Shown here one piece after another: positions 1,152 to 64,000 of a DNA stretch of 64,000 nucleotides; the first letter of the stretch is position 1, and each line of letters opens with the position of its first letter. Under the pieces are notes generated by a model. It searched no databases. It was not told where the DNA came from and was given only the letters and a program-made list of their open reading frames with translations. The position numbers and the translations under genes were made by a program. The DNA is from an uncultured Planctomycetota bacterium. GTDB taxonomy: Bacteria; Planctomycetota; PLA2; JAEUHO01. The stretch spans positions 64,001 to 128,000 of the forward strand of contig CAVVXN010000005.1 of NCBI GenBank assembly GCA_963752285.1. Direction: 5' to 3'.

Positions 1152-1158
1152 CTCGCGG

Positions 1159-1197: not shown

Positions 1198-1203
1198 CTT
1201 CGC

Positions 1204-2681: not shown

Positions 2682-2709
2682 GCCGTTCGGCTCGCACGGG
2701 GAGGGCCCC

Positions 2710-12115: not shown

Positions 12116-12121
12116 CGAGGG

Positions 12122-21063: not shown

Positions 21064-21106
21064 CGGTGAACGAGACTCTCGACCGCCACGGAAGGAGCCG
21101 CGGCCC

Positions 21107-22096: not shown

Positions 22097-22102
22097 GCCC
22101 GC

Positions 22103-32852: not shown

Positions 32853-32974
32853 CCGCCCTCCCGACGCCGGCCGGCTCCGGCGGGGGAGCGGCGAGGCGTC
32901 GAGGCTGGGAACGCAGGGCCTTCGCCGTCGCCACCGCCGCGTCGCGAACGCCCGGATCCGCCGCGCGGGTCCGG

Positions 32975-36258: not shown

Positions 36259-36315
36259 GCCGTGCGGAGTCACGCGTTCTTCGTCCGCGGCCGTGGCACG
36301 CGACCGCGGCGCGGC

Positions 36316-40522: not shown

Positions 40523-42486
40523 GGGCGTGCGGTCCCGGCGGCGGGACGGAGGAGCAGCGACGGGAGGAAGAGCACGTCGGCCAGGAGCGCGACCACCATC
40601 GTGCTCGACGAGAGCACGGCGAACTCACGGCTCGACTCGAGGGACCCCACGATGCAGACGAGGAAGCCGAGCGCCTCGACGAGCGTCGTGACGAGCACGG
40701 CCCGGCCTGCGACGCGAAAGCTCCGGGCGGTGGACACGAGCCGGCTCGAGCCGCGGCGCCGCGCCTCGCGGTAGCGGTAGAGCAGGTGGATCGAGTCGTC
40801 GACCGTGAGGCCGAGGAGAACCGACCCGATCATGGCCGACCCGACGGAGAGCGGGCGCCCGACGAGCGCGAGGCCGCCGTAGAGCACGACGGCGGGGACC
40901 AGGTTCGGGATGAGCCCGAGCAGGCCGAGGCGCGCGGAGCGAAGGCCGATCGCCATCGCGAGCCACAGGAACAGGAGCGTCAACCCCATGCTCCGAAGCT
41001 GCGAGGCGACGAGGTCGTTCGAGTCCTTCGCCTCGATCACCGGCGCGCCGGCGGTCACGGCCCCGGCCCACCCGAGCGCGCGCGCGCGGGTCTCGACCCG
41101 CGAGAACAGTCGCGCGCGGTCTCCCGTACCCGAGGGGCGCAAAAGGACGCGTTGCCGCTCGAGGCCCGAAGGCGAGCGCTCGAGGGGGCCGAGGACCTGC
41201 GCGACCAACGGTTCGTCGGCAAGGGCGCGTCGGAGCTCCCGGTACGCCGTCTCCTCGCCCGCGGGGGCGGCGCCCGGGAGCAGCACGTCGAAGCTCGCGA
41301 CGCCGCCGAGCGAGCGCGCGACGCTCTCCGTCTCGCGACGGAACGGGCTGTGGTCCGGCAGGAGGCGGAGGGGCTCGGTGTCGATCGAGAGGCCGGCCCA
41401 TTCCCAGGCGAAGAACGCGACGAGGAGCGTGCTGCCCGCCACGACGACGCGCGCCCGGCGGTCGAGCCAGATCGCGAGCCCGCCGGCCAGGTGGGCCCCG
41501 GCCGCGTTCGGGAGCCGGAGCCGCGCGATGCTCGACCCGCGCGCGAAGACCCGCAGGAAGGCGGGGAGCCACAAGAGCGTCAGACCGAACGTGAGGACCA
41601 CGCCCAGGCCGGCGAGAAGACCGAACTCGCGTACCGCGGGAATGCTGTTCCACACGAGCGCGAGGAACCCCGCGACGGTGGTGCTGATCGTGAGCGCCGC
41701 GGGCCGTACGAGCTCCCGAACGGCGTTTCGGACCGCGGCGTCCGCGTCGAGGCCCCGTGCGCGGTGCTTCAAGAAGGCCTCGACCAGGTGGACGGACCCC
41801 GCCACGCCCACGGTCAGGAGCACGGGCGGGAGCAGCGAGGAGATCGGGTCGACCTGGAGGGAGAGCAGCCACTGGATGCCTCCGAGCACCAGGATGCCGA
41901 GCAACGCGGACGCCAGGATGCCGACGCCGAGGGCCACGTGGCGGTACGTGACCAGGAGCAGGAGGAACAACGCGCCGAGAAGGATCGGGACGATGTGTCC
42001 CAGCTCGTCGGCCATGGCGCTCGAGATCGCGATCTCGCCGAGAGGCTGACCGGTCGCGTCGAATCGGTAGCCCGGAGGCCGGCGCTTCCACGCGAAGTCG
42101 ACGGTGGCCTGCACGCGGTCGAAGAACCGGCCGCTCTCGTCGTTCTCGATCGTGACGACGAGGTACAGGGCCTTGGGGCTGCTCTGGGGCAGCACGCTCG
42201 CCTGCGCCACCCAGCCGAGCCCGCGGATCTCCTCCGCCCACCTCGGCACGGACGCATCGTGGATCGGATCGAGGAGGCCGCCCGGCAGGGGCTCCAACAT
42301 GAAGAGGAGGGTGCTCTCGGGACCGAACGCCTTCTCCCGGAGCTCCTCCGCCGCCGCCTGGGCGGTGTGCCGGGAGATCATGCTGCGGTTCTCGCGATCG
42401 AGCTGCAGCGACTCGAAGCCGACGCCCGCGACCCCCGCCAGGAGGACGAGGCCCAGCAGCAGCGGGATGTCCACAGCGCGTCGCAC
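40519..42486 (-). CDS. MMPL/RND-family lipid exporter
   Basis: Two TM bundles with periplasmic loops; TTVAGFLAL, PAVREFG, GLIPNLVP, GLTVDDSIH, GRAVLVTT, LADVLFLP. Start uncertain (42474/42486/42606). Confidence 0.88.
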   Translation of the reverse strand: MRRAVDIPLLLGLVLLAGVAGVGFESLQLDRENRSMISRHTAQAAAEELREKAFGPESTLLFMLEPLPGGLLDPIHDASVPRWAEEIRGLGWVAQASVLPQSSPKALYLVVTIENDESGRFFDRVQATVDFAWKRRPPGYRFDATGQPLGEIAISSAMADELGHIVPILLGALFLLLLVTYRHVALGVGILASALLGILVLGGIQWLLSLQVDPISSLLPPVLLTVGVAGSVHLVEAFLKHRARGLDADAAVRNAVRELVRPAALTISTTVAGFLALVWNSIPAVREFGLLAGLGVVLTFGLTLLWLPAFLRVFARGSSIARLRLPNAAGAHLAGGLAIWLDRRARVVVAGSTLLVAFFAWEWAGLSIDTEPLRLLPDHSPFRRETESVARSLGGVASFDVLLPGAAPAGEETAYRELRRALADEPLVAQVLGPLERSPSGLERQRVLLRPSGTGDRARLFSRVETRARALGWAGAVTAGAPVIEAKDSNDLVASQLRSMGLTLLFLWLAMAIGLRSARLGLLGLIPNLVPAVVLYGGLALVGRPLSVGSAMIGSVLLGLTVDDSIHLLYRYREARRRGSSRLVSTARSFRVAGRAVLVTTLVEALGFLVCIVGSLESSREFAVLSSSTMVVALLADVLFLPSLLLRPAAGTARP

Positions 42487-42601
42487 GAGGCCGGCGCTCC
42501 TCGCCCCGGGTACCGCAGATGTCGTGCCTCGTGACGACGCGGGGGTCGCGGCGTCGAACGGCCGTCCCCGCGGGCCTCGCCCGGCGCGTTCGGCCGCGAA
42601 G

Positions 42602-42629
42602 TACAAGAAGGCTTGAAAGTCCTACAAGG
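42602..42629 (+). promoter_or_regulatory. Candidate enhancer (UAS) for the sigma54 activator
   Basis: AT-rich island TACAAG-AAGG-CTTGAAAG-T-CCTACAAGG about 115-140 nt upstream of the predicted +1; matches the motif at 47037-47055. Confidence 0.55.
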
Positions 42630-42716
42630 GACGCGCGCCGCCGTCCCCGGGCGTGCGGATCGACGCTACGGCCATTCTCCGGACTCTGGGCGCCCCGCGC
42701 GGGGCGCCCCGCCGCG

Positions 42717-42732
42717 TGGCCCGAGCCTTGCA
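42717..42732 (+). promoter_or_regulatory. Sigma54 (-24/-12) promoter
   Basis: TGGCCCGAGCCTTGCA = GG-N10-GC with TGGC and TTGCA, 12 nt before ATG 42745. Confidence 0.75.
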
Positions 42733-42744
42733 CTCGGCCGCGCC

Positions 42745-44043
42745 ATGAACCGGAGAATCCTCACCATCGTCGGCGCCCTGTCCCTGCTGGTCTGGACCGT
42801 GGGCGGTCTGGTCGCCTGGGGGCTCACGAAGGAGGGCGTCAGCGTGACCGTGCGCGAGGGGAGCGCCCGCGACGCGGCGGACGACGGCCTTCACCTCCTC
42901 GAGGACCGCGTGGGCGCGCTCGAGAACGACCTGCGCGCGCTGGCCTCGACGCTCGAGACGAACTTCTCGGTCCTGCAGGCCAACGAGAAGCAGGACCTGG
43001 GCGCCCGCGCCGCCGAGATCGAGGCGCACGTGGAGGCGAGGCTCGGACAGAGCGTCGCCGCCCTCCAGACGTCCCTCGGCGCGGACCGCCAGGAGCGACG
43101 GGAGCAGGTCGAGGCGGCGACGGCGCGCGCCGACGAGACCGCGTCGCGCCTGCTGGCGGCGCTCCACGAGGTCGAGGCCGCCCGACGGCGGGAGACGCCT
43201 TCCGTCGTGGCGACCGCCGCGCGCGAGGCGCCCCGCGCGGACGCTCCGGCCCCCTCGGCGACCCAAGAGGCGCCGGTCGTCGCGGCTTCCCCGCCCCCTG
43301 CGGCCCTTCCGCCGCGCCCCGCCGCGACGCCGGCACCTCTTCCGCCGCCCGCCGTGGCGCCGGTCGCGGGCGCACCGGGGCCCGCGTCGCCGCCGGCCCT
43401 CGCCGCGGCGCGGTCCGCGCGGGCGCCGACGCCCGCGGCGACGCCCGCGGCGCCGGAGCCGCCTGCGCACGGCTTCCTCTCGTTCCAGCTCCCGAGCGAC
43501 GCGGTCCGGTTCGACCGGCGGCAGCGCTTCACGGTCGTCCCCTCCCTCTCGCGCGTCGGGTTCGACGGGAGCAGCACGCTGCACGGATTCACCGGCGTGA
43601 CCTCGACGCTGACCGGAACGGTGGAGGTGGACCTTTCGCACGCCGACCGCGACCCGCGGGCCGAGATCCACGTAGACGCCGCCACGCTCGACACGGGCGA
43701 GGCCTCGCGCGACGCGGAGATGCGCACGTCGCTCGGCACGGCCCAGCAGCCCGAGATGACCTTCCGTCTGCTCTCGTTCAGGCCCGAGCGCGTGGACGCC
43801 CGCGCGGAGCGGGTCGTCGGCGTCACCCACGGCCAGATGACGATCCACGGCGTGACCCGGGAGGTGGACATGCCGACCTCCCTCAGCCTCGACGCCTCGC
43901 GGCGCCTGCACGTGGACGGCGAGATGCCCCTCGACATGACGGCCTACGGCGTGACGCCGCCCAGCAAGCTCGGCGTGATCAACGTGGACCGCATGGTCAA
44001 GGTATGGATCCGCCTCCGGGCCCGGATCCAGGCGGGGTCGTAG
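42745..44043 (+). CDS. Membrane-anchored coiled-coil + YceI (lipid-binding) domain protein
   Basis: N-terminal TM, coiled coil, Pro/Ala linker, YceI motifs SRVGF..STLHGFTG, LDTGEASRD..MR, GQMTIHGVTR, YGVTPPS. Confidence 0.85.
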   Translation: MNRRILTIVGALSLLVWTVGGLVAWGLTKEGVSVTVREGSARDAADDGLHLLEDRVGALENDLRALASTLETNFSVLQANEKQDLGARAAEIEAHVEARLGQSVAALQTSLGADRQERREQVEAATARADETASRLLAALHEVEAARRRETPSVVATAAREAPRADAPAPSATQEAPVVAASPPPAALPPRPAATPAPLPPPAVAPVAGAPGPASPPALAAARSARAPTPAATPAAPEPPAHGFLSFQLPSDAVRFDRRQRFTVVPSLSRVGFDGSSTLHGFTGVTSTLTGTVEVDLSHADRDPRAEIHVDAATLDTGEASRDAEMRTSLGTAQQPEMTFRLLSFRPERVDARAERVVGVTHGQMTIHGVTREVDMPTSLSLDASRRLHVDGEMPLDMTAYGVTPPSKLGVINVDRMVKVWIRLRARIQAGS

Positions 44044-44045
44044 CG

Positions 44046-44507
44046 ATGCTCCGTGCCGTGTCCGTGACCCGTGGGCCTCGGCGTCGCGGATTCGCCGGCG
44101 TGCTGGTGCTCGCCCTCTCGTCGGCGCTCTTTGCCTGCGCATCCGCCTCGCCCCTCGCGCCCGCGGCGCGCGCGGTCGAGACGACCGCCGCCAACGTGCG
44201 CTGGCAGCCGGCCCACGCGACGAGCATTCCCGGTACCTACCGGTCGGAGACGATCGAGGGCGCGGCGGCGCCCTCGGTGATCGGGCTCTACTACCACTTC
44301 GAAGCCGACCGCTCGTACGCCGCCGCAGCCCTCCTGGCTTCGCATCCCCCGGCCTTCCAGGTCCGAAACGGCACGTGGAGCCTCGACCAGGGCAAGCTGT
44401 CGCTCGGGGACGGCTCGGAGCCGGCCGTGATCGAGGAGGCGGAGGGGCGCCTGCGTCTCACGACGAGCCAGGGCCGCGTCGTGCTCCATCGCGACGAGAT
44501 CCGCTGA
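44046..44507 (+). CDS. Small lipoprotein (possible lipocalin-like beta barrel)
   Basis: Lipobox LFAC; beta-rich IPGTY..YHFEADRSY..GTWSL..LRL..VVLHR; TGATG-coupled to the PKS. Confidence 0.7.
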   Translation: MLRAVSVTRGPRRRGFAGVLVLALSSALFACASASPLAPAARAVETTAANVRWQPAHATSIPGTYRSETIEGAAAPSVIGLYYHFEADRSYAAAALLASHPPAFQVRNGTWSLDQGKLSLGDGSEPAVIEEAEGRLRLTTSQGRVVLHRDEIR

Positions 44508-45568
44508 TGCGCATCGCCGCGGTGGGGACGGCGCTGCCGTCGAACGCCTACTCCCAGGAGGAGATCTTCGGCGCGCTCTCGGCCATCTGGCATCGGAGCG
44601 CGACGTTCAACTCGCGCGCGCGATCGCTCTTCGAGAACGTGCGCGTGCGTCGGCGTCACCTGGCGAGACCGCTCGAGTCGTACCTGCGGCGCTCCCGGTT
44701 CGGCGACACGAACGACCGCTGGATCGAGGACTCCCTGGACCTCGGCGAGCGGGCCATCTCGGACGCGCTGACCCGCGCCGGGCTGGGTCCGAAGGACGTG
44801 GACGCGCTGTTCGTCACCTCGGTCACCGGCATCTGCTCGCCGTCCCTGGACGCGCGCCTGTTCAACCGCATGGGGCTCCGGCCCGACCTGAAGCGGCTGC
44901 CTCTGTTCGGCCTGGGCTGCGTGGCCGGCGTGTCGGGTCTCGCGCGGGCCGCGGAGTACGTACGTGCGTTCCCCGACCAGGTCGCGGTCCTCCTCTCTGT
45001 CGAGCTCTGCTCCCTGACCTTCCAGTACGAGGACCTCTCCGTCGCCAACCTCATCGCGACGGGGCTCTTCGGGGACGGCGCCGCCGCGGTCGTCGTGGTG
45101 GGCGCGGACCGCGCGCAAACCCTCGCCTGCGAGGGGCCGAGCGTCGTAGACTCGCGCTCCAACATCTACCCCGACACCGAGGACGTCATGGGGTGGCACG
45201 TGAGCGAGCAGGGCTTCGAGCTCGTTCTGAGCGAAGGCGTCCCGCGGATGGCGCGGGAGGGACTCGGCCCCGACGTGGACCGCTTCCTCCGCGAGCGGGG
45301 CCTCGGGCGAAGCGACATCGACCACTGGGTCTGCCACCCGGGCGGTCCGGCCGTCCTCGCCGCGGTGCAGGAGGCGCTGGGCCTCGGCGACGAGCAGGTC
45401 GAAGCCTCGTGGCACGTGTTGGCGGAGCAGGGGAACCTCTCGTCCGTGTCCGTCCTCATGGTGCTGAGGCGCACCCTGGACGCGTGCCGCCCGGTCGCCG
45501 GGAGCCGCGGCCTCTTGCTCGCGATGGGGCCCGCCTTCTGCTCCGAGATCGTGCTCGTGAGGTGGTAG
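44507..45568 (+). CDS. Type III polyketide synthase (SrsA/alkylresorcinol-synthase-like)
   Basis: Catalytic triad GLGCVAG (Cys), CHPGG (His), GNLSS (Asn); ELCSLT; LFGDGAAA; MGPAFCSE. Confidence 0.93.
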   Translation: MRIAAVGTALPSNAYSQEEIFGALSAIWHRSATFNSRARSLFENVRVRRRHLARPLESYLRRSRFGDTNDRWIEDSLDLGERAISDALTRAGLGPKDVDALFVTSVTGICSPSLDARLFNRMGLRPDLKRLPLFGLGCVAGVSGLARAAEYVRAFPDQVAVLLSVELCSLTFQYEDLSVANLIATGLFGDGAAAVVVVGADRAQTLACEGPSVVDSRSNIYPDTEDVMGWHVSEQGFELVLSEGVPRMAREGLGPDVDRFLRERGLGRSDIDHWVCHPGGPAVLAAVQEALGLGDEQVEASWHVLAEQGNLSSVSVLMVLRRTLDACRPVAGSRGLLLAMGPAFCSEIVLVRW

Positions 45569-53455: not shown

Positions 53456-54529
53456 TCACTTCGGGGCGGCGGACTTCGCGAGCTGTAGCGCCAGCTCGTA
53501 CGCGCCGCGCCGCCCGAGGGCGGCCAGCGCCTTCTTGGCCGCGAAGATCTCCGAGAGGTCGGCGCCCGCGCCCGTTCCGACCCAGGTCGCCACGACCTCC
53601 CCGGTCGTCGTCCGGTACGCGCGGACCTCGACGCGCGCGCGGCACGACACGAACCGACCCACGCGGCCGCCGTACTCGCTGAACGCCTCGCCGACGACCG
53701 CCAGGTCCGCCGGGAGCGACTTCGGGGCGGGGAAGCTCGCCTTCTGCTTGCCGGCGTCGTCGAGCCACGTCCGCTCCCGCTCGCTCGTGACGGGCGCGAT
53801 CTCGAAGTCGAGCCGGCGGAACGCCGCGAGCATCTCCGTCTCGGCGGCGGGGTCCGCGACGCGAGGCGCCTGGACGTGACGCTCCGGCACCGCGAGCGCG
53901 ATGCGCGGCCGCGTGACGCCGAGCTTCTCGATTGCCTCCCTCAGCGCCTTCTCCCGCGCCGCGTCCTCGGGCGTGGCCGCCGGGAGGATCTCGCCACCCC
54001 GCTCGACGAGGAGGTCCAGGACCCGAGCCGCGAGCTGCGCCGCGAGCTCGGTGCCGGGCGCGTCGGCGCCGCCGCGCACGAGCGCCGGGAGGTACGCGCC
54101 GGTCTCCGCGCCGATGGCTTTCGCAGAGAGGAGCACCTCGCCCTCCACGGAGGAGACGCGGCCGACGACGAGCACCTCCGCGCCGACGAGCTTCCCCACG
54201 TCCGCGCCCTTCCCCTCCTCGACCAGCCCTGCGAAGCTGAGCGCCTGCTCCTCCTGGATGCGGTCGAGGTCCGCGCGCGTGACGAGCCGGAGCTTCTTCG
54301 ACTCGGCGAGCTTCGCTTCGAGGAGGCGCGGCAGCGCCTGGGTCAGCTCCCGGAGGGTGTCCTTCGGGCCCTGGAAGTCCAGCACGGCCACGACGAGAGG
54401 CGCCGGTACGTTCGCCGGTGCGGCGGCGGGCGGCGGGGGCGCGGGCTCGTCGGCCCGCGCGAGGCCCGTTCCCGCCAAGAGCACGAGGGCCGCGAGCCCG
54501 CCGAGGGAGGTGGGGTGGAAGGTCTTCAT
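53456..54529 (-). CDS. Secreted CsgG/FlgO/TolB-N-like domain protein
   Basis: Signal peptide; VAVLDF..LVTRADLDRIQEEQALSFAGLV..VGKLVGAEVLVVG; second alpha/beta domain. Confidence 0.8.
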   Translation of the reverse strand: MKTFHPTSLGGLAALVLLAGTGLARADEPAPPPPAAAPANVPAPLVVAVLDFQGPKDTLRELTQALPRLLEAKLAESKKLRLVTRADLDRIQEEQALSFAGLVEEGKGADVGKLVGAEVLVVGRVSSVEGEVLLSAKAIGAETGAYLPALVRGGADAPGTELAAQLAARVLDLLVERGGEILPAATPEDAAREKALREAIEKLGVTRPRIALAVPERHVQAPRVADPAAETEMLAAFRRLDFEIAPVTSERERTWLDDAGKQKASFPAPKSLPADLAVVGEAFSEYGGRVGRFVSCRARVEVRAYRTTTGEVVATWVGTGAGADLSEIFAAKKALAALGRRGAYELALQLAKSAAPK

Positions 54530-55475
54530 CGTTCTCTCCAGAAGGCGCCGTCCGACGCGTCGGGCGCGCGGGCGGCGAAGTCGTGAAGCCACGGGGCGCA
54601 CGCGACGACCGCGCGAAGCCGCGCGACGAGGAGCGCCGCGAGGGGTTCGTCCGCGAGGGCCCCGACGAGGCGCAGACGCGCGACGAGCACGCAGCCCTCT
54701 CCGACGAAGGCGAGGCGGACGAGACCCGGCACGAGCTCCAGGTGCGCGCCCGCGGGCGGCCGGAGCGGCCGTTTCGCGATGCCGTCCGAGGCGCCCCACC
54801 GGACGAGCGCGCCCGGAGGGAGGTCGTAAAGGAGGAGCCCGGCGGGCGGCGGGGAGGGCGGGCGCCCCTCCGAGACCCATGGCGCCGCATCGGCGCCCAG
54901 CGCGAGCACGGTCCCGCCCCCGCGCGCGAAGCCGAGGAGCGCGGGGACGAGGGGCGTCACGTCGCCCGCGCCGGGGGCGAGCACGATCGTGCGTCCCCGA
55001 AAGCGGGAGATCGCGGTCGCCGTCCCGAGGGACACGCGCTCGATCTCGATCGGCGTCGCGCCCGCGCGACCGGGCGGGGGCGCGCCGACCCAGCCGACGC
55101 GCGCGCGGCCGAAGGGCGCCGCGGGCGGCGCCGCGTAGACGAGGACGTCGGTGACGCTGCATTCGCCGTCCCTCGCGCAAAGCTCGAGGCGGGCCGGGAT
55201 CGTCCGGCGGACCGCCGGCACCTCGACACGGAGCCCGAAGCGTCTTCGAGCGCGTCACCGCGCCCCTCCGCGATCACCGCGCCGAACGCGACGAGGCGCC
55301 ACGACGGCCCGCCCGCGTCCGACCCGTCGGCGACCGCGAGGCGCCGGACGACCGTCGTGCCGCCGTACCAGCGCGCGCCGCCGACGAGCGCGGTCCCGGC
55401 GGCGTCGTCCGCCGCGACGGGCGCCGCGACGATCGCGCTAGCGAGCAGCAGCGTAGAGGGCCAGCGCACGGCCAC
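54526..55475 (-). pseudogene. Secreted hypothetical protein interrupted by a frameshift near 55240 (or sequencing error)
   Basis: The signal-peptide ORF from 55475/55469 turns to low-complexity sequence after ..AEGRGDALE; protein-like sequence continues in another frame (LRVEVPAVRRTIPARLEL..) to the stop overlapping ATG 54529. Confidence 0.55.
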
Positions 55476-56145
55476 CGGTTCGGACCTCGCCGACGAGGAC
55501 TCGTTCGCCGCTCGCCACGGTCGGGAGCGTGGCGGCGATCTTCGCGCCGTCCTCGAACGTGGCGGCGCAGGCGATCTCGACGCGATTCGAGGAGGGCTTC
55601 GTCGCCCGGACAGAGAGGCTCGGCATCGACGGGAGGTCCACCGCGACCTCCGCTCCGTCGGGCACGACGAGGCGGGGCGCTTCGAGGACGTGTCCCTCGG
55701 CGTCGCGCAATTCGAGGAACACGACGCGTCGCTCGTCGTCGGAGGCGCGCGGAGTGAAGCCGATCACGACCTCGCCGCCGGAGGACGCGATCCACGACAC
55801 GCGCTCGCCGAGGCCCTGGTCGATCGCCTCGAGGACCTTCCGTTCGTGCTCGGCCCACGCGAGGGGCACCGGCGACTCCGCCGTCGCGGCCCGGGGACGG
55901 AGCGCGAGCCCCGCGCCGACGCCGACGCCCACGAGCACGACGGCGGCGGCGGCGAGGACCGCGACGCGACGTCGCGTCCCGAGCGCGCGGCGGGCCAGGA
56001 GCGCACCGAGGAGGGCGTCCTCGGCGCCGGCGCGCGGTTCGGGCGCGCGGTCTCGGTCGCGCTGGTCCCAGCGATCGAACGCCAGGACGGCGTGGTCGGG
56101 CGGCGCGTCGTCGTGCGGCTGGGGTCGGGGATCAGACGTGGTCAC
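55438..56145 (-). CDS. Putative anti-sigma factor (single TM)
   Basis: Directly overlaps the sigma gene 3' end; short cytoplasmic part, TM VAVLAAAAVVLVGVGVGAGL, periplasmic domain. Confidence 0.65.
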   Translation of the reverse strand: MTTSDPRPQPHDDAPPDHAVLAFDRWDQRDRDRAPEPRAGAEDALLGALLARRALGTRRRVAVLAAAAVVLVGVGVGAGLALRPRAATAESPVPLAWAEHERKVLEAIDQGLGERVSWIASSGGEVVIGFTPRASDDERRVVFLELRDAEGHVLEAPRLVVPDGAEVAVDLPSMPSLSVRATKPSSNRVEIACAATFEDGAKIAATLPTVASGERVLVGEVRTGGRALALYAAAR

Positions 56146-56671
56146 GGAGCACCTCTCCGAGGCGGCGCTTCGCCTCGTGGACGCGCCAGGAGACGGTCCC
56201 CTCCGCGCACGAGAGGCAGCGTGCGGCCTCGGCGTGCGAGTAGCCCGCGAAGGTGGTCAGGACGATCGCGGTGCGGAGGTCGTCGGGCAGGCCGCGCATC
56301 GCCTCGTGGACGAGGCGGGAGCGCTCCTCGTGCTGGACGTCCTGGACCAGACTTCGCGGACCGGGGCGGGCGTCGCCGTCGAGCCCCGTCGTCGGACGGC
56401 GGCGACGGCGGTCGTTGAGGTACAGGTGGATCCCGATCTTCGTGATCCAGCTCCCGAGCGCGGCCTCGCCGCGGTACGTGCCGAGACGCTCGAGCGCCCG
56501 CCCGAACGTCTCCTGGCAGAGGTCGTCCGTCTGGTCGGGGTCGCGGGTGAAGCGCCAGAGCGTCTTCCAGACGGGTCGGTAGTGGCGCTTCACGATCTCG
56601 CTCCGGGCCAGGGGGTCTCCTCGCCGCGCGCGTCCGAGCAGGACCGCGAGATCCAGGTCGTCCGGCGTCAT
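56132..56671 (-). CDS. ECF sigma factor (sigma70 group 4)
   Basis: ARRGD..IVKRH, DDLCQETF, WITKIG; region 4 LPDDLRTAIVL..GYSHAEAA..EGTVSWRVHEAKRRL. Confidence 0.92.
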   Translation of the reverse strand: MTPDDLDLAVLLGRARRGDPLARSEIVKRHYRPVWKTLWRFTRDPDQTDDLCQETFGRALERLGTYRGEAALGSWITKIGIHLYLNDRRRRRPTTGLDGDARPGPRSLVQDVQHEERSRLVHEAMRGLPDDLRTAIVLTTFAGYSHAEAARCLSCAEGTVSWRVHEAKRRLGEVLRDHV

Positions 56672-56693
56672 CGGCGTCGAGGACCTCCGCTCC

Positions 56694-56723
56694 GTTCGAC
56701 ACGGGGTCGGCGCGGTTCCTTGG
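56694..56723 (-). promoter_or_regulatory. Candidate ECF promoter upstream of the sigma gene
   Basis: CCAAG-N16-GTGTCGAAC; near-identical motif at 61641-61669. Confidence 0.55.
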
Positions 56724-56732
56724 CGCTGGCCG

Positions 56733-59072
56733 TCAGCGCCCACCCGTCGCCTCCTTCCCGAGCCACGGCTTCGTCGCGCGCTGCCGGGCCTGGACCGTCT
56801 GCTCGAAGGTCGTCCACGTGTCCGGGCGGGCCTCCGGCTTCGGGACCTCGTCCTCCGGGATGCCCAGTCGGGCGGCCAGGCGCGTCAGCCCGTCCTGGAA
56901 GCCCCGGACGACCGTCGGGTCGCGCCACCCCGCGACGGCGCGGTCCCAGAACGGGAAGACGTCCGGGAGGTCCATCTCGCCGAGGTCCGAGAGCACGCGC
57001 GCACGCCCGTCCGACGGGAGGCCGTCGTACCCGCGGACGACGTCGTCGAAGCGCGCCTTCCGCCGCGCCAGCTCGTGGATCCACCGGGCCGCGAGGTCGG
57101 GCGCGGGACCCTGTCCCCAGGTCCATCCGACCGAGCTGGGCGACACGCGTCGCACGAGCTCCCGGAACGGGTCCAGGCGCCCCGGCGCGAGGTACAGGCG
57201 GTAGACCTCGGCCTGCTCGCCCGAGAGGGTGCGTTCCTGCTTCGCGTACCACGCGGCCAGCCGGTCGGCGGTCGCCCCCGGGTCGGGCCCGCCGCCCGCC
57301 ACCGCCAGGAGCGCGTACTGGAGGAGCTCGGCGTCCTCGTCGAACGCGTCGAGGAGCGCCCACGCCTCCTTCGCGGCGGCCTCGGGGTCGGCGGCGCCGA
57401 GGAGCAGGAGCCCCGCCGTGCGCTCGCTGGAGCGGGAGGACGCGAGGAGGTCTCGGCCGAGGTCGGCGGCGCCGGGCGGCCGGGCGTCCAGGTACCGGAC
57501 CAGCTCGAGCGCGTCGTCGGGGAACCGGCGCGAGGCAACGATCTCACCGGCGCGCTCCGTGGCGCGTCGATGGAGCTCGGCCTCCCGATCGTAGGTCTCC
57601 TTCGTGGTGGCCCCGGTGGTGAGTCCCGCGCCCGAGCAGAACGCGAACCGGGCGGCCTTGCGGAGCTCCGCCGACGGGTCGTCGAGCAGCGCGAGGAGCG
57701 CGTCGGCGACGGGAGGGACCTTCGTGGCCCACGGCGCGAGCTTCGAGACGAGCTGGGCGCGGTACCGGGCGGTGAAGGCGCCGTCCCCGAGACGAGACGC
57801 GAGCCGGGCGACGAGGGCCGCGTCGAGCGGGACCTGCGACACGCCCTCGAGCGAGACGGTCTCGTCGGGACTCGCGGCCGCCTCGGACTCCGCGTCCCGG
57901 ATCGCCGCGAGGACCTCGGAGGAACGGAGGTGGGGCCCGACGGCGTCGAGGAAGCGGGCCACCGGGTCGCGCTCCTCCGGACGCGCGGCGAGGAGGCCCC
58001 GCGCGAACCGGGCCGCGCGCTCGGGGGTGAACAGCTCGCGGAAGCGATCCAGGGCGCCGTGCTCGAAGAGCCACAAGGACGTGGGCTCGTGGGCGAAGAC
58101 GTAGACGAATCGGTCCGGATCGCGGTCGGCGATCGCGAGGAGGATCCGGGAGGCCAGCTCGGACTCGATCGCGTAGGGGAGCGCCGCCTCGAGCTCGGGG
58201 AGCGACGTCTTCGGGTCGTCCGTCGCGCGGGTCACGGCGCGGACCCGCTCGTCGTCGTCCGCGCCCGAGACGAGCACCTCCGCGAGCGAGGGCGGGGACG
58301 CCGTCGGGACCGATCGGCCTGCCTCGTCGCCCGCGATCCGGGAGAGCGCCTTCTCGGCGGACGCACGAAGGGCCCCGTCGGGCGCCGCGGCCAGATAGGA
58401 GCGAAACGAGATCTCCGCGTGTCCCGGCTGCCCGAGCGCGAGGTACGCCTCGCCGGTCCAGTACGAGGTCTCGGGGAAGCGGACGGCGAGGTGCGCGGCC
58501 TGGAGCAGCTCGCCGATCGCCTCGGCGGCGCGGCCCGTCCGGAGGTGCGCCAGGCCGCGCAGGTAGTGGAGCGAGGCGGCCGCGGTCCGGTCCGCGGCGG
58601 GCCGCGTGGCGGGAGCGGGTCGGCCGAGGCGCTCCGCGACCGCCGCCGCGGCCGTTCGCGCCGCGCCTTCGAGGTCGCCGGTCGCGTCCACGGTGCCGAC
58701 GAGCGCTCCGTCCGGGACGGAGAGGACGCGGAGCACGTAGCGCCAGCGACCCTCCTCGAGCGCGACGGTGCCCGTCACCGCGCGGGTGGCGGCGAGGAGG
58801 TGGCCGATCCGCACCGCGTCGGTCGCGCCGGCCGCCGTGGCGAGCCCCTGTTCGGCGAGCGCGCGGTCCACGTCCGCGCGGTCCACGAGCGTGACGCCCT
58901 CGATCGTGCCGAGCGAGGCGGAGAGCACGTCCGTCGCGGCAGGGCCCAGGTCCGACGACGTGGATCCTCCGGCGGCCTCGAGCGGCCACACGAGCAGGGT
59001 CGCGGCGTCGTCCGCCGCCGCCGGTCGCGCGAGGCCCAGGATCGCGACGAGTAGGAGGAGCCGGCGCCTCAC
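56733..59072 (-). CDS. Secreted CsgG-like + TPR + HEAT-repeat protein
   Basis: Own GGAGA SD, GTG 59072 and signal peptide (VRRRLLLLVAILGLARPAAA); LVDRADVDRALAEQGL..IGHLLAA; TPRs; HEAT-like LLALLDDPSAELRKAA. Confidence 0.7.
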   Translation of the reverse strand: MRRRLLLLVAILGLARPAAADDAATLLVWPLEAAGGSTSSDLGPAATDVLSASLGTIEGVTLVDRADVDRALAEQGLATAAGATDAVRIGHLLAATRAVTGTVALEEGRWRYVLRVLSVPDGALVGTVDATGDLEGAARTAAAAVAERLGRPAPATRPAADRTAAASLHYLRGLAHLRTGRAAEAIGELLQAAHLAVRFPETSYWTGEAYLALGQPGHAEISFRSYLAAAPDGALRASAEKALSRIAGDEAGRSVPTASPPSLAEVLVSGADDDERVRAVTRATDDPKTSLPELEAALPYAIESELASRILLAIADRDPDRFVYVFAHEPTSLWLFEHGALDRFRELFTPERAARFARGLLAARPEERDPVARFLDAVGPHLRSSEVLAAIRDAESEAAASPDETVSLEGVSQVPLDAALVARLASRLGDGAFTARYRAQLVSKLAPWATKVPPVADALLALLDDPSAELRKAARFAFCSGAGLTTGATTKETYDREAELHRRATERAGEIVASRRFPDDALELVRYLDARPPGAADLGRDLLASSRSSERTAGLLLLGAADPEAAAKEAWALLDAFDEDAELLQYALLAVAGGGPDPGATADRLAAWYAKQERTLSGEQAEVYRLYLAPGRLDPFRELVRRVSPSSVGWTWGQGPAPDLAARWIHELARRKARFDDVVRGYDGLPSDGRARVLSDLGEMDLPDVFPFWDRAVAGWRDPTVVRGFQDGLTRLAARLGIPEDEVPKPEARPDTWTTFEQTVQARQRATKPWLGKEATGGR

Positions 59073-61634
59073 CGCGGGATCTCCGTGGTGAGCACCCACG
59101 TGCCCGTGCCCCAGGAGGTCGTGACCAGCGTGCTGCACGGTGTCGTCGGGGCCGACCCACACGTCCTTCGGCATCGACTCGGCCTCCGTGAGGTGCGGAC
59201 CCGTCCACGCCGCGCCGTCCCGGGACGTGAACAGCCCGAACGCGCCGTCGGCCGTGCGATCCCAGAGGACCAGCGTTCCGTCGGGGGCACGGCCGAGGAC
59301 GGGACCCCAGAGGTAGCGAGAGAGGACGCCGGCCGTTCCCGTAACGGCGAGCTCCTGTGGCGCGCCGGCGCGGGGCCACCGCGTCACTCGGATCTCCCGG
59401 CCCATCGCGCGCGACGCGACGAGGACGGCTCCGTCCGGCAACGCGACGGCGGTGCCTCGCGCATCTTCGCCCACGAGCAGACGGGGTGCGCTCCAGGTCA
59501 TGCCGTCGGACGTGTCGATCTCGTAGATGCCGGCGCCGTCCGGCCCCTGGGCCGAGCGGAGGATCACCCGGCTCTCGCCGAGGTCACCCTCGAGGATCTG
59601 CACGTCCCCCTCGGCGAGGAACACCTGGGTCCCCGCCGCGGGTCCCAGGTAGGTGCGTTCCGCGTCGTGACCACGAATCGGGAACGCGATCCGCCGTGGC
59701 CACGACCATTCGACGAGATCGTCCGAGGTGGAGGCGTAGAGGCACGCCCACGTCGGGTTCCCCCGATTGGAGATCCAGACCAGGAGCCACCGTCCGTCGG
59801 CCATTCGCCCCAGGGCCGGGTGATCGTCGTACGCCGAGGACGACACCGAGAGCCGCCTCGGCGCGCCGAACGTCCGGCCGCCGTCGCTCGACGAGACGAG
59901 CCAGAGGTCGGGGTCCACCCACGGGTCGAGATGGGCCGGCGGGTCGTCCGGCTCGCCCCACCAGCTACCCCGTGCCGCCGCCAGCACGACGTGGACCGCG
60001 CCCTGCGGCCCCGTGGCGACGCGCAGGTGCTCGATCGGGCGGCCGAGCTCCGGCGCGAGCGGTGCCGCCCCGCCGATCGAGGGCGCGGGCCCGTCGCGCG
60101 CGTGGGCTCCCTCGGGGACGAGCTCGGCTCGCGTCTCGATCGAGTCGAGTCGGACACCCCGGGGCTCGGCCGAGACCCACACCTGGGCCACCGGAGGAGA
60201 GAACCGCATCGTCCGATCGACCGGCTCGGCGTCCCCGGCGGGAACGGTGATCTCCGTGACGACGTGCTGCGGACCGTTTACGCCGCCCCATCCGGACAAG
60301 AGGAGCGTCCCGGAGGATGCGTCGTCGTCTCGATGCGCCCCGACGTGCCAGTCGAGTCGCGAGATTCGCAGCCCGCGCGCGGCGAGGATCTGGAGCCCGG
60401 CGGGGAGGGAGGGGCCGCCCGGTTGGGGCGCCGGATCGACGGAAAGCGAACACCGCGGTGCGCTCGCGGACAGGACGACGCAGCCCGGAGGCACGGGTGT
60501 CGTCGGATCGACGGCGCGGACCGCGCGCGCGTACAGGGCGGCGTAGAGTCCGCCCAGGCCCGCGGCGACGCCGTGGAGCTCCTCCCAGGCATGGGTGGAC
60601 CAGAGGGCCTTCATGCGCTCGACGCTGGCGCTCCTCGCGAGGTCGGGCTGGAAGTGCACGTCGCGGGCCTGGCAGAGCTTCCATCGCGCGTAGACGAAGG
60701 CGAGGGCGTCGCTCCAGCGACCCTTCCGAGCGAGATCGAGCGCCAGGCGGCCGACGAGCGCGGAGGTCTCGGGGTGGTAGGGGAAGCGCTCGATGGCTCG
60801 CGCGAGGGTCTCCTCCGCGCCGTCAGCACGGCCGGGCTCTCCTTCGATCGCATCGGCGGCGAGCCGGGCCGCGCGCACGACCGCGTTCGGGTCGCGCGAG
60901 GTCCGGACGAGCTCCTCCCACGTGAGGGCGGCGTGCGCGTGCTGACCGAGATCCTGGTAGAGCCGCCCGAGCGCGAGCGCGGCGTCGGTGAAGGCCGGCT
61001 CCGCCTCCAGCGCGTGCGTCAGCCCGACGAACGCGCGGGGGTAGTCCGCGTCGTCCTCGGCGGCCAGTGCCCGGTAGTACGCGGCCATCGCCTCGACCGA
61101 GACCGGCGGCAGCAGGACGGCCGGCTCGAGCCCCTCGGCGCCGAAGACGGCCTGCGTCATGTCCGCGACGAGCCGGCCGAGCGTCGGGACCGTGCCGTGG
61201 AGCCGCCGGCTCCGAAGCGGCGTCCCCGCGTGCGCGTCCACGACCGCGAGGTCCACGTCCACGTCGTCGCCGTTCGCCGCGAAGGTGCCGAACACCGCCC
61301 AGTCGGCGTCGGCGACCCGCGCGAGGCTCGTCGCGTCCTCGGGTCGGAGGAGGCCCACGGCCGCGAGGTCGCGCTCTCGCAGCAGCTCGGCGACGCCCTC
61401 GCGCTCGACCACGACGACGCCGGGCTTCCCGGCGAGCGCGCCCGAGAGGAGCGTCCCGAGCGCCGAGCCGAGCCAGTCGTGCGCGGGGTCCTCGGCCCGG
61501 GGCGCGAAGCGGAGCACGGCGACCTGCAGGGTCTGGGGCCGGGCCGCGGGTTCGCCGTCGGCCCGGGCCCGCGCGGTCGAGACGAGGAGCGCGAGCACGA
61601 GACCGGCCCCGGCCCACAGCGCGCCCTTCGCCAT
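59069..61634 (-). CDS. Secreted CsgG/TolB-N-like + TPR + sialidase-like (BNR/Asp-box) protein; frameshift near 59135
   Basis: Signal peptide; VAVLRF..VVEREGVAELLRE; TPRs; Asp-boxes SSDGGRTF, TSDDLVEW, TSDGMTW, TSRDGAAW. The natural C-terminus appears to be in another frame (TLVTTSWGTGTWVLTTEIPR, stop 59069). Confidence 0.7.
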
Positions 61635-61640
61635 CGAGGA

Positions 61641-61669
61641 GTTGGACACCCTCCCGGGCCGATTCTTGG
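61641..61669 (-). promoter_or_regulatory. Candidate ECF promoter at operon head (leaderless)
   Basis: CCAAG-N15-GTGTCCAAC ending 6 nt before ATG 61634. Confidence 0.55.
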
Positions 61670-62043
61670 CCGGCCCCATTCTGGCGTCGCTCGTCCCGGG
61701 CCCATCGGAGCAGCCCGTTCGTCCGTGCGCAACGACGCTTCGGGGTGGGGGAGGTCGAACGCGAGGCCCCCGGATCCACGTGCCGGCCCGCGAGGGCGCG
61801 GGCCGCGTGAACGGACGAGCCGGGGCCGCAGGGAGCCGCATGGGCCGAGCCGCGGCGCGGAGACCTCCGGCGCTGGCAAGCGTGGCGACGGGGCGCGGCG
61901 CCGGCCGCGAACGGGGTTCGGCATGCCCTCCCGAGCCCGGATTCAGGGGCTCTGGGGGCCGACCGGCGGGGCCCCCGGGACTGTCGGTGGTTCGTTTTAT
62001 GTTAGGTGGATCGGACCGCGCTACCACCTTGGGGGATCTCCTC

Positions 62044-64000
62044 ATGCAAGCCGTCGAAGACGTCCGCCGCGCCCTCTCGTCGATCGACCTCGTCCAGGGC
62101 CTCTCCATCCACCACGTCGAGACCCACCTCGAGATGGGGCTCCGCCTCGGGGACGTGGGGCAACGCGTCCTCGCCTTCTACCTCCTGGAGATGGAGACGC
62201 GGGGGCTCCACCAGGCGCTCGGCTACGCCACGACCGCCTACTACGCCGAGGACCGGCTCGGTCTCGACCGCCGCCGAACGGCGGAGCTGCTGCGGGTCGG
62301 GCGACGGCTCCTGGAGCTCCCGGAGATCGACCAGGCCTTCTGCGAGGACCGGCTCCCGTGGTCCAAGGTGCTCCTCCTCTCGCGGGTCGTCGAGCCCGCG
62401 CACGAGGCGGCCTGGCTCGCGCGCGCGCTCGCGCTCACGAAACGGGACCTGGAGCAGGAGGTCCGCGTCGTCAGGCCCGGCGCGCCGCCGCCCGCGTCCG
62501 GGGAGCGGATGGGACTTCCGCAGGTCCGCTTCACGGTCGAGATGAAGGTCTCGCCGCTCGTCCAGGCGAAGCTCGAGCAGGCGAAGGCGCGGGTCGAGTC
62601 GGAGCGCGAGACCCCGATCGGCGACGCGGAGCTCCTGGACGTCGTCCTCGACACGTTCCTCTCCTTCGAGGACGACGGGACGATCCCCGGGAAGAAGCGC
62701 GTCGCGCGTTCGCTCTACCAGATCGTGCTCCGCGAGGAGGCGTGGCCCGACGAAGGCACGCCGGGGGGAGTACCTGGAGAGCAGGGCCGAGACGAAAGTG
62801 ACGAAAGCGACGGAGGCGGCGGCGCGGCGCCGGACGACCGGACCCGCGAGTCGCTGGGGGACGCGAGGCCGCCGGGGGACGCGAGGCCGCCGGGCGACGC
62901 GAGGCTGCCGGGCGACGCGAGGCTGCCGGGCGACGCGAGGCTGCCGCCGATGCCGCGACTCCTCCTCGAGAGCGGCATCCCGCTCGCCGAGGCGTGGAGC
63001 GCGGCGGTGCGCTGCGACGCCGAGGTCTCGGGCTGCCGGCAGGACGTGCCCCACGAAGAACGCGACCCGAAGACGCCGCGCTGGATGCGGAGGCGGGCGC
63101 TCGCGCTCGACGGCCACCGGTGTCGATCGTGCGGCTCGCGCTACCGGCTGATGGTCCACCACGTCGCCTTCCGGCGCCGAGGCGGGAAGACGAGGCTCCA
63201 GAATGTCGTGACCCTCTGCGTTCGCTGTCACGCGCTGGTCCACGAGGGGCTCCTCGAGGTCGAGGGACGAAGCGGAGGGGAGGTCCGGCTCGCGGGGATC
63301 GACGGGCGGTCGATCCGGACGCCCCTCGCGCCCGCCGACCGGAGGGCGGTGATCGGGATCCCGTCCACCCGCAACGGGTCGGAGTCCGACGGACGGGCGC
63401 GCGCCTCGCCCGCGCCTTCGCTCCCGCCGCGCGTGGCCCTCGCGGACGTGCCCCTGGAGATCGACGCCGCGTGGTGGCACCGGCACCGGGACCTCGTCCG
63501 GTTCCGGAGCGAGACGGAGGTCGAGCTCGAACCGGGACGGCCCAAGGCCGAAGCGACGAACGAGGCGCGTGGCGAGGCGGGCCCGCCATCGCAAGCGGGC
63601 GTGTCCTTCGAGGAGGCGTTCGAGGGTCTCGTCGGGCAGGAGGACCTGCTCCGGCGGATCGAGGTGGCCTTCGAGGGATCCAAGGCGCGGGGCCGCGCGG
63701 TCCCGCACCTCCTCCTGGTCGGTCCCCCGGGGACCGGCAAGACCACGATCGCCCGGCGTCTCTCCACGCTCGAAGGCGCGCGGCTCGTGGAGGCGAATGG
63801 CGCGTTCCTGGACGCGCCGGGTTCGCTCGTGCGGATCCTCGCGGGACTCCGGGACGGCGACGTCCTCTTCGTGGACGAGGTCCACGCGCTCGCGCCGGCG
63901 GCGCAGGAGGTCCTCTACCCGGCGATGGCCGAGGGGCGGCTCGGGCTCGTGTTCGGACGGGGATCCGAGACCCGGACGGTCTCGTTTTGGCTCCCGCGCT
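62044..64000 (+). CDS. DUF222-like + HNH endonuclease + RuvB-like AAA+ ATPase fusion (3' truncated by window)
   Basis: Open frame from ATG 62044 to the window end, absent from the ORF track. LG..YAEDRLGL..ELLRVGRRLLELP..F..LPWSKV (DUF222-like); DGHRCRSCG..VHHV..GG..NVVTLCVRCHALVH (HNH); VGQE..HLLLVGPPGTGKTT..GDVLFVDEVH..EVLYPAM (RuvB-like). Confidence 0.85.
   Translation, partial: MQAVEDVRRALSSIDLVQGLSIHHVETHLEMGLRLGDVGQRVLAFYLLEMETRGLHQALGYATTAYYAEDRLGLDRRRTAELLRVGRRLLELPEIDQAFCEDRLPWSKVLLLSRVVEPAHEAAWLARALALTKRDLEQEVRVVRPGAPPPASGERMGLPQVRFTVEMKVSPLVQAKLEQAKARVESERETPIGDAELLDVVLDTFLSFEDDGTIPGKKRVARSLYQIVLREEAWPDEGTPGGVPGEQGRDESDESDGGGGAAPDDRTRESLGDARPPGDARPPGDARLPGDARLPGDARLPPMPRLLLESGIPLAEAWSAAVRCDAEVSGCRQDVPHEERDPKTPRWMRRRALALDGHRCRSCGSRYRLMVHHVAFRRRGGKTRLQNVVTLCVRCHALVHEGLLEVEGRSGGEVRLAGIDGRSIRTPLAPADRRAVIGIPSTRNGSESDGRARASPAPSLPPRVALADVPLEIDAAWWHRHRDLVRFRSETEVELEPGRPKAEATNEARGEAGPPSQAGVSFEEAFEGLVGQEDLLRRIEVAFEGSKARGRAVPHLLLVGPPGTGKTTIARRLSTLEGARLVEANGAFLDAPGSLVRILAGLRDGDVLFVDEVHALAPAAQEVLYPAMAEGRLGLVFGRGSETRTVSFWLPR
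62857..62946 (+). repeat. Intragenic tandem repeat, 5 x 18 bp (GDAR[P/L]P)
   Basis: GGSGACGCGAGGCYGCCG repeated five times in frame. Confidence 0.9.

Follow-up and report, generated by a model that had tools for sequence, protein, structure and literature searches.

What kind of protein is encoded at the 3' end of a 64 kb stretch of planctomycetotal DNA, where a nuclease domain and an ATPase resembling RuvB share one reading frame? The stretch, called the window hereafter, comprises positions 64,001 to 128,000 of contig CAVVXN010000005.1 (assembly GCA_963752285.1) from an uncultured Planctomycetota bacterium, and the gene in question runs off its end. RuvB is ordinarily a stand-alone motor that depends on RuvA for finding DNA and on RuvC for cutting it. 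We found that the gene encodes a conserved single chain consisting of a helical DUF222-like head, an HNH nuclease, a connector and, as seen in full-length relatives, a complete RuvB-family motor. The reading that we favour, with a probability somewhat under one half (about 0.45), is that the fusion is a damage-induced, self-loading nuclease-translocase and represents a RuvB-armed branch of the 13E12/DUF222-HNH genes, a multicopy family inducible by damage. The features to which we refer are the following, with their basis in brackets.

61982-62003, forward strand: promoter-like element TGTCGG-N10-TATGTT (motif scan, recurrence)
62031-62036, forward strand: probable ribosome-binding site GGGGGA, 7 nt before the ATG (read from the sequence)
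62044-64000, forward strand: coding sequence, residues 1-652 of the fusion protein (translation, codon-position plot, homologues)
62044-62739, forward strand: N-terminal all-helical domain, DUF222-like, residues 1-232 (structure prediction, family links)
62740-62958, forward strand: disordered acidic proline-rich insert, residues 233-305 (alignment, predicted local confidence, Tandem Repeats Finder)
63079-63243, forward strand: zinc-finger HNH domain, residues 346-400 (Pfam, PDB sequence matches, conservation)
63244-63615, forward strand: post-HNH connector, residues 401-524 (consensus of homologues)
63616-63999, forward strand: first 127 residues of the RuvB-type AAA+ large domain (Pfam RuvB_N, NCBIfam)
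63721-63744, forward strand: Walker A, GPPGTGKT, with K566 (sequence)
63874-63879, forward strand: Walker B, D611-E612, followed by the start of the presensor-1 beta-hairpin (sequence)

A nuclease and a RuvB-type motor in one chain

Translation of nucleotides 62044 to 64000 yields 652 residues with zero stops, from the ATG to the end of the window, and the same frame is already open from position 61159. With a G+C content of ~75%, the window gives rise to many long spurious frames, and hence long open frames by themselves mean little. We analysed the G+C content of the third codon positions (GC3), which indicated a single coding phase from ~62000 to 63900 (GC3 of 0.86-0.97; second-position G+C of 0.40-0.64); this constant phase argues that there is no change of frame between the HNH domain and the ATPase. 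The uninterrupted frame reported in a preliminary description of this DNA, made from its letters alone, is therefore real, and the motifs quoted there (CRSC..VHH..N..CVRCH..H, GPPGTGKT, VLFVDEVH, QEVLYPAM and the beginning of the hairpin) were all found in the translation. ATG 62044 is likely the start of the fusion gene, because four homologues start at the aligned position and because the promoter-like motif and the GGGGGA ribosome-binding site are located just upstream. A GGAG sequence is present at the same distance before the start in homologous loci. The window copy is cut at its 3' end and lacks ~190-210 residues, as estimated from homologues of 720-840 residues, the length of full-length fusions.

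We determined how widely this architecture recurs. A word-indexed search yielded 30 relatives, 24 of which are proteins of 652-839 residues that combine HNH with RuvB_N and, in nearly all cases, also have the RuvB lid and RuvB_C; the remaining six comprise fragments, a single frameshifted copy and proteins that have HNH only. We then built a profile from the N-terminal half (alignment A3, devoid of ATPase columns), which retrieved 1,161 proteins at E<=1e-30 from 1.84 billion representative sequences. To score the RuvB region, we used a local hidden Markov model built from 111 canonical RuvBs. Among the best 150 of the 1,161 proteins, 69 have at least 650 residues, of which 66 hold a RuvB-like region, and the 81 shorter ones include seven with a partial RuvB region; many of the remaining shorter family members may be contig-end fragments. 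Additional domain fusions were also sought in the long or RuvB-less members, in which only HNH and RuvB domains were found. Finally, a scan of one genome per species located relatives at 23 loci, 19 of them in metagenome-assembled genomes (MAGs) whose titles name Planctomycetota, Planctomycetia or Planctomycetales; among the four weakest matches are two loci labelled 'delta-proteobacterial' and one Binatia locus. Twelve loci in named MAGs carry full-length or contig-truncated fusions. The ABC-F protein encoded in the window shares 59-67% identity with proteins named from Planctomycetota MAGs and 51% with the first named match of another phylum, which points to a probable planctomycetal origin of the window. 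In the text below, handles in P denote homologous proteins and handles in L denote loci.

The single-polypeptide architecture put forward in the preliminary description thus recurs in 24 of the 30 relatives and in 66 of the 69 long representatives among the best 150. Since the fusion is conserved elsewhere, it is not the product of a recent stop-codon loss, an origin that the same description had envisaged. More generally, one may suspect a chance open frame in DNA of 75% G+C, a misassembly or a stop-loss pseudogene, given the long spurious frames that such a composition produces and the missing 3' end. The data contradict this explanation, to which we give next to no credence: the codon-position pattern is that of coding DNA throughout, the HNH and RuvB_N domains both score above curated cut-offs, the same collinear arrangement is found in 24 of 30 near matches and 66 representative clusters, and the gene appears to be under purifying selection (see below). 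Databases already list such proteins as 'Holliday junction DNA helicase RuvB', 'RuvB' or 'AAA family ATPase'. Full-text literature searches gave no description of a protein of this architecture, in agreement with the earlier statement that no characterised one was known; two articles that mention both RuvB and HNH (PMC7736814 and PMC7824862) turned out to be irrelevant to the fusion. The parts are known, and in these searches their full combination is undescribed.

The nuclease domain matches Pfam HNH (PF01844) over residues 360-400 (nt 63121-63243) with an E-value of 1.3e-8 and 35.3 bits, for a cut-off of 21.4. The zinc-finger HNH recognized earlier is borne out by this score and by the presence of two CxxC pairs and of the His...Asn...His residues, with C360, C363, C392 and C395 as the predicted zinc ligands and H372/H373, N387 and H396/H400 as the predicted catalytic residues. 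None of these residues varies among the 25 closest relatives. In 70 full-length fusions, C360, C363, H373 and H396 are invariant, and H372, N387, C392, C395 and H400 are conserved in at least 90% of the sequences. Pfam HNH was found in 15 of the 15 family N-termini tested, and the sequence matches of this part in the PDB are the HNH domains of IscB, Cas5-HNH and McrA. The connector that follows consists of short strands, a conserved VD..WW.RH motif at approximately residues 472-484 and a variable proline-rich tail. It matched no known family when compared with Pfam and with PDB sequences. In a structural model of the homologue P0002, the segment with the motif is predicted with confidence (predicted local distance difference test, pLDDT, of 88-96) and leads straight into the RuvB part.

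The ATPase matches Pfam RuvB_N (PF05496) over residues 525-651 (nt 63616-63996; E 6.5e-29, 101 bits for a cut-off of 27). The match spans positions 5-131 of the 159 positions of the profile and ends only where the window ends, and two NCBIfam RuvB models are the best matches for this fragment (111.5 and 103.6 bits). The full-length relatives P0002 and P0011 harbour RuvB_N, the RuvB lid and the RuvB_C winged helix, all above Pfam cut-offs. The ATPase part of a homologue aligns end to end with the solved RuvB structure 9dx3_A, from the FxGQ motif to the TPRGR motif (E 6e-50), with identities of 35-41% to solved RuvB and of 38-44% to canonical RuvBs of many phyla, none of which is preferred. The AlphaFold model of full-length P0002 (pLDDT 86.1, predicted template-modelling score 0.61) superimposes on RuvB chains with target-normalised template-modelling (TM) scores of 0.82-0.87 and E-values down to 6e-30; clamp-loader subunits come next, with a TM score of 0.48. 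In the 70 full-length fusions, K566 and E612 are invariant, and the Walker B aspartate, sensor 1, the arginine finger and sensor 2 are conserved in at least 90%. Compared with the 111 canonical RuvBs, the RuvB catalytic positions reach 0.94-1.0 in 69 fusions, and the presensor-1 hairpin is kept. The window copy itself extends as far as Walker A and B; the other catalytic residues fall past the end of the window.

Other positions have diverged. Of 111 columns conserved in at least 90% of the 111 canonical RuvBs, 51 remain conserved in 80% or more of the fusions and 23 fall below 30%. The losses include the N-terminal LRP arginine, the arginine following the Walker B histidine (HRL), the first EE glutamate, the acidic MED signature ('ED' motif) and the ATTR arginine; the window protein shows HAL, QE and AMAEG at the canonical HRL, EE and MED sites. 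In a quick maximum-likelihood tree of 34 of the 69 fusions, eight locus copies, the window copy and 40 of the 111 canonical proteins (unrooted, with no outgroup), the 40 canonical RuvBs lie on one side of a branch with 98% support in the Shimodaira-Hasegawa-like approximate likelihood ratio test and all 43 fusion rows on the opposite side, with longer branches than those of canonical RuvBs. The equivalog cut-offs of the NCBIfam RuvB models are 282 bits (NF000868) and 299 bits (TIGR00635). The closest relatives score below 282 bits (P0002, 245; P0003, 237; P0011, 235), and the canonical RuvB P0046 scores 510. NF000868 is passed by the more distant fusions P0183 (291), P0209 (308) and P0283 (327), of which only P0283 also passes TIGR00635. 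Its position outside the sampled canonical group, the sub-equivalog scores of the closest relatives and the lost positions together argue that the motor is a RuvB-family paralogue and not RuvB proper. The claim that the ATPase resembles RuvB specifically thus stands for its three domains and its fold and needs to be restricted for its placement, beyond the 98% branch that delimits the sampled canonical RuvBs.

These data also bear on the simplest functional explanation, namely that the protein is the housekeeping RuvB of its host, extended at the N-terminus, and takes part with RuvA and RuvC in the branch migration of Holliday junctions. In favour of such a role, some relatives bear the annotation Holliday junction DNA helicase RuvB, the fusions retain both the catalytic core and the presensor-1 hairpin, and P0183, P0209 and P0283 exceed the 282-bit NCBIfam RuvB cut-off. 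However, the fusions fall outside the 40 sampled canonical RuvBs, the scores of the closest relatives (235-245 bits) are far from the 510 bits of a canonical RuvB, and 23 of 111 canonical-invariant positions are lost. In addition, one MAG has up to three intact copies, and no ruvA adjoins the gene at any locus examined. Planctomycetes have an ordinary RuvB. We therefore consider a housekeeping role very improbable.

The head is predicted as a confident helical domain, with pLDDT values of 93-98 over residues 30-150, and its residues W106, W124, G146 and P149 are conserved in at least 90% of 142 sequences. The best Foldseek matches of the head in the PDB are the DNA-binding domains of ParB/Noc proteins (E 0.014-0.07, target-normalised TM scores up to 0.65), with none reaching E<=0.001, and the head has no sequence relatives among PDB structures, in which only the HNH part of the protein was matched. 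On the basis of the structural model, the head is probably a DNA-binding helix-turn-helix module. It had been described as being of the DUF222/13E12 type, which is supported only indirectly. The N-terminus of the window protein does not match Pfam DUF222 (PF02720) even at E<=10, and only one of the 15 family N-termini tested does (P0030, 24.7 bits for a cut-off of 24.4). The nearest ESM-Atlas cluster to the head (score 0.96) has DUF222 on 15% of its members. The link to DUF222 is thus a lead provided by P0030 and the Atlas cluster, short of Pfam level.

Between the head and the HNH domain, the window copy has an insert that is present in none of the 24 other aligned proteins, with pLDDT values below 50 at residues 248-298. 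It contains an 18-nt tandem repeat at 62852-62946, identified with Tandem Repeats Finder (5.3 copies, 96% matches), which encodes GDARPP/GDARLP. This repeat may act as a spacer of variable length that separates the head from the nuclease.

The element upstream of the gene

When 100 nt upstream of ten start codons were aligned, a shared element was first found by eye. In the window it reads TGTCGGTGGTTCGTTTTATGTT, at 61982-62003, 41 nt upstream of the ATG, and fits the pattern tGTCgg(N10)tA(N3)T. It is composed of a -26-type part (61982-61987) and a -10 element (61998-62003), with no -35 element, and a scan of 61500-62150 detected no sigma-70 promoter of the -35/-10 kind. No Rfam RNA family was found upstream of the gene. 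The motif TGTC-N12-TAnnnT has its sole match in the 64 kb window at this position (0.35 expected). The stricter form TGTCRGWG-N8-TAnnnT occurs 11 times in 347,845 bp, each time on the gene strand and directly upstream of a family gene. A relaxed motif is found upstream of the gene at 14 of the 23 loci, and its only three matches elsewhere all belong to a single locus of 51% G+C.

This arrangement resembles that of promoters that depend on PafBC. In PMC8635444, their consensus is given as tGTCgg(N10)tA(N3)T, and that article and PMC6789036 describe promoters that have no -35 element and rely on 'sigma adaptation'. According to PMC3381160, the 13E12 genes of mycobacteria are induced by DNA damage and have a RecA_NDp promoter, and Rv1148c and Rv1945 are listed as DUF222 + HNH in a preprint (10.1101/2024.10.15.618387). 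As the 13E12 DUF222-HNH genes share the RecA_NDp promoter, the protein family and the promoter type appear to travel together. The preliminary description, which did not mention the element, had offered junction processing, homing or defence as possible functions; the match of the upstream element with the PafBC/RecA-NDp type favours a DNA-damage context for the fusion gene. The RecA_NDp motif was reportedly first described by Gamulin in 2004. No WYL domain was found among the window ORFs (open reading frames) scanned, and a literature search brought up no mention of PafBC promoters in Planctomycetes beyond a WYL survey.

Two further sequence features were observed in the same region. An ACGAAC/GTTCGT hexamer occurs 12 times in the ten 100-nt segments upstream of family genes, for 0.64 expected (~19-fold). 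It is found at 61990-62003 in the window and at loci L004, L005, L006, L009, L010, L014 and L016, often as two copies 7 nt apart, and it overlaps or follows the -10 element. This box could be a repressor (LexA-like) site. Moreover, an inverted repeat (AGGTGG...CCACCT, 62004-62029, 6-bp arms and a 14-nt loop, as read from the sequence) lies between the -10 element and the ribosome-binding site, i.e. in the presumed 5' untranslated region; none was seen in the other loci.

Copies, selection and neighbouring genes

The window contains one copy of the fusion gene. The preliminary description had called for a check for paralogous copies, and such copies are indeed present in relatives, with 2-4 loci per MAG in five MAGs (four in JANOFW01, and two each in JASJAY01, CAZJJQ01, JALTLO01 and JAYTCP01). 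The proteins encoded by three intact copies in one MAG are 67-74% identical, and those of two copies in another MAG are 48% identical. Across four regions of the gene, the ratios of nonsynonymous to synonymous substitution rates (dN/dS) of paralogues and orthologues range from 0.03 to 0.63, although G+C-biased third positions may distort the synonymous rates; they are lowest in the HNH and motor regions of orthologues. By these ratios, the fusion gene is under purifying selection. One relative, P0024 (535 residues), is normal through the HNH domain and the connector and then has an Arg/Trp/Pro-rich sequence in place of the ATPase; judging from its sequence, it looks like a frameshifted, possibly decaying copy.

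We analysed the surroundings of the gene in the window and in related loci. All-against-all BLAST comparisons of the flanking ORFs of 14 loci and the window revealed no conserved partner gene, with the exceptions of two syntenic orthologue pairs and of generic sigma-factor and ABC families. In eight loci, the 50 flanking ORFs code for ordinary metabolic and envelope proteins, and none of them has an integrase, transposase, phage or defence domain. Neither ruvA, nor ruvC, nor a second ruvB was found among the window ORFs scanned or these 50 ORFs. Blastn comparisons between paralogous loci showed that DNA similarity covers only the ORF and ~100 nt upstream; mobile-element ends were looked for in these comparisons, and no terminal repeats or target duplications were seen. 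Thus, the fusion gene is solitary among unrelated housekeeping genes, and relatives have up to three intact, diverged copies per genome.

Multiplicity of this kind raises the possibility of a selfish multicopy gene, in which a free-standing homing-type HNH nuclease of the 13E12 kind would have captured a RuvB motor that drives branch migration and the gene conversion of its own copy into cut sites; its induction by DNA damage would be like that of many mobile elements. Several diverged copies per MAG, in variable genomic contexts, with a similarity that ends at the ORF and promoter, are compatible with this idea, as are decayed copies such as P0024 and relaxed overall dN/dS values of 0.2-0.44. 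In addition, the 13E12 family is described as insertion elements with phage attachment sites in PMC3381160. In contrast, the paralogues of a given MAG are only 48-74% identical, which argues against recent transposition or homing events. The lack of visible terminal repeats or target duplications, the lack of mobile-element domains in the 50 neighbouring ORFs and the single copy in the 64 kb window also speak against it, and the syntenic orthologues L009/L010 and L014/L016 indicate stable vertical inheritance with motor dN/dS values of 0.09-0.20. We regard a selfish gene as rather unlikely.

McrBC-type motor-nucleases provide the comparison for another alternative, an anti-phage or anti-plasmid enzyme in which an AAA+ ring translocase carries a built-in nuclease and a WYL regulator senses single-stranded DNA during infection. 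The combination of a motor with a nuclease, the multicopy state and the fast evolution fit this proposal, and WYL regulators also control phage defence systems (PMC9122601 and PMC10693628). Membership of a known defence system was examined with PADLOC, which returned only short P-loop- or HNH-level matches of 12-29 bits, to DpdF (HNH region), mad8, IetA (P-loop) and TRIP13. The matches to DpdF, mad8 and IetA are weak domain-level hints in its favour, but no system model was matched beyond these single-domain scores. Furthermore, no defence or mobile domains were detected in the 50 neighbouring ORFs or in the window ORFs scanned, and there is no conserved modification, sensor or immunity partner gene. 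A defence enzyme therefore seems distinctly doubtful, and we rank it below the selfish gene.

Several neighbouring features were noted. Upstream of the fusion gene in the window, a divergent giant ORF (56733 to ~61650, reverse strand; up to 1,791-1,814 residues) has weak BNR_2 and CsgG-like matches and is followed by a gene for a sigma-70 factor of the extracytoplasmic-function type (56135-56884, reverse strand). The coding signal of the giant ORF stops near 61650, leaving an intergenic region of ~390 nt. At L004 and L005, ~100 nt upstream of one paralogue match two places upstream of another (123-234 and 938-1022 of L004 with 9739-9861 of L005, 76-77% identity), which may represent a duplicated upstream segment. 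At L009, 4-9 kb upstream of the fusion (121-5682, reverse strand), genes code for a DEAD/Helicase_C/MZB helicase of the MrfA type and a protein of the RNase_H_2 superfamily, a pair that resembles a mitomycin-repair pair and that was seen at this locus only.

Elsewhere in the window, positions 20936-26800 (forward strand) hold a Bat-like run of MoxR (AAA_3), DUF58 and VWA genes. A second group of genes at 39182-45565 codes for a flavin (FAD)-dependent halogenase-like oxidoreductase, an MMPL/sterol-sensing transporter, a YceI-domain protein and a type III polyketide synthase, and may be a small lipid or polyketide locus. Four long frames, at 9479-12121 (reverse strand), 31407-33014, 36259-37689 and 53489-54583 (all forward strand), have an odd codon pattern, with first-position G+C of 0.91-0.94 and third-position G+C of ~0.8, and have no Pfam match. 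They could correspond to low-complexity Gly/Ala/Asp-rich proteins or to non-coding stretches.

A possible mode of action and its meaning

The reading as a damage-induced nuclease-translocase can be laid out as a sequence of steps. DNA damage would turn the gene on through a WYL-type activator like PafBC. The head would bind DNA and tether the subunits, so that a RuvB-type hexameric ring could form on duplex DNA without RuvA. ATP hydrolysis would then drive the DNA through the ring and along the HNH heads mounted on it, which would nick or cut at any branch, stalled fork or lesion that the motor encounters. A single chain would thus combine targeting in the manner of RuvA, pumping in that of RuvB and cutting in that of RuvC. 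Both predicted catalytic centres are kept, as the HNH residues, the Walker A lysine and the Walker B glutamate are conserved in the 70 fusions.

Independence from RuvA and RuvC is suggested by the lack of ruvA, ruvC or a second ruvB in the window and flanks, by the lack of a conserved neighbour and by the canonical positions lost. Among the latter, the LRP arginine and the acidic signature belong to a trans-signalling network driven by RuvA domain III via the presensor-1 hairpin, according to a cryo-electron microscopy study of RuvAB (PMC9477746). The loss of these trans-signalling positions and the absence of ruvA nearby suggest a RuvA-independent cycle, as far as we can infer.

A number of points weigh against the proposal as a whole. 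The hairpin that binds RuvA is kept in length and shape, and the protein may therefore still use RuvA. The DNA-binding role of the head is a lead that comes from weak Foldseek matches to a predicted structure. The window copy is devoid of its last ~200 residues, and we deduce its lid and winged helix from those of homologues. The promoter was assigned by likeness to an actinobacterial motif, in a host that belongs to the Planctomycetota, and no PafBC-like gene was seen, though no search aimed at one was made. The motif is missing at nine of the 23 loci, and in the ~348 kb scanned it is present only upstream of the fusion family; a wider damage regulon is thus not in evidence. Lastly, the multicopy state and fast divergence (paralogues of 48-74% identity, long branches) would fit a selfish or conflict gene equally well.

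The comparison with known systems helps to delimit the proposal. Like RuvB, the fusion family has the three domains, the fold, Walker A and B, sensor 1, the arginine finger, sensor 2 and the presensor-1 hairpin. In contrast with RuvB, a stand-alone protein of ~330-350 residues encoded with ruvA, its motor is fused behind a 520-residue region comprising a predicted DNA-binding part and the nuclease, and its gene is multicopy, is not beside ruvA and has changed LRP, HRL, EE, MED and ATTR sites.

McrBC couples a ring ATPase on duplex DNA to a nuclease, and T4 endonuclease VII is a nuclease of the HNH superfamily (beta-beta-alpha-metal) that resolves branched DNA. The likeness of the fusion to both concerns a possible way of working, as the sequence relationship is limited to generic P-loop and HNH folds. 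Unlike McrBC, the fusion unites its motor and nuclease in a single polypeptide, in which we found no modification-reading domain.

Like the 13E12/DUF222-HNH proteins (Rv1148c, Rv1945), the fusion has a helical domain at its N-terminus and a zinc-finger HNH after it, belongs to a multicopy family and is preceded by an element of the RecA_NDp/PafBC type; in mycobacteria, the 13E12 genes are induced by DNA damage (PMC3381160). It differs from them by its host, from the Planctomycetota rather than the actinobacteria, by the lack of an identified mycobacterial-type LexA box at the fusion gene and by its whole RuvB motor, whose usual absence from DUF222-HNH proteins is taken from the preliminary description. 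As for the promoter, the 22-nt bipartite TGTCGG/10 nt/TAnnnT element without a -35 element, ~40 nt before the start codon, is like those of PafBC-dependent genes. PafBC promoters are described in Actinobacteria (PMC8635444 and PMC6789036), whereas here the element occurs in MAGs labelled Planctomycetota, only before the fusion family, and is accompanied by the ACGAAC/GTTCGT box.

A nuclease and a DNA-binding head welded to a RuvB paralogue suggest an alternative way of coupling branch migration or DNA pumping to cleavage. The promoter match ties the fusion family to the DNA-damage response and to the mycobacterial 13E12/DUF222-HNH damage genes, whose function is unknown, and it hints at the use of PafBC-type promoters in Planctomycetota, beyond Actinobacteria. 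The most far-reaching version of our proposal, which we put forward as a speculation, is a one-chain 'resolvasome' in Planctomycetota, in which RuvA would be replaced by the protein's own head and RuvC by the HNH domain, with a damage switch operated by PafBC-like sigma adaptation. If this were true, it would mean that this promoter logic extends past Actinobacteria, and the fusion would provide the first mechanistic handle on 13E12/DUF222-HNH proteins as enzymes of branched or duplex DNA.

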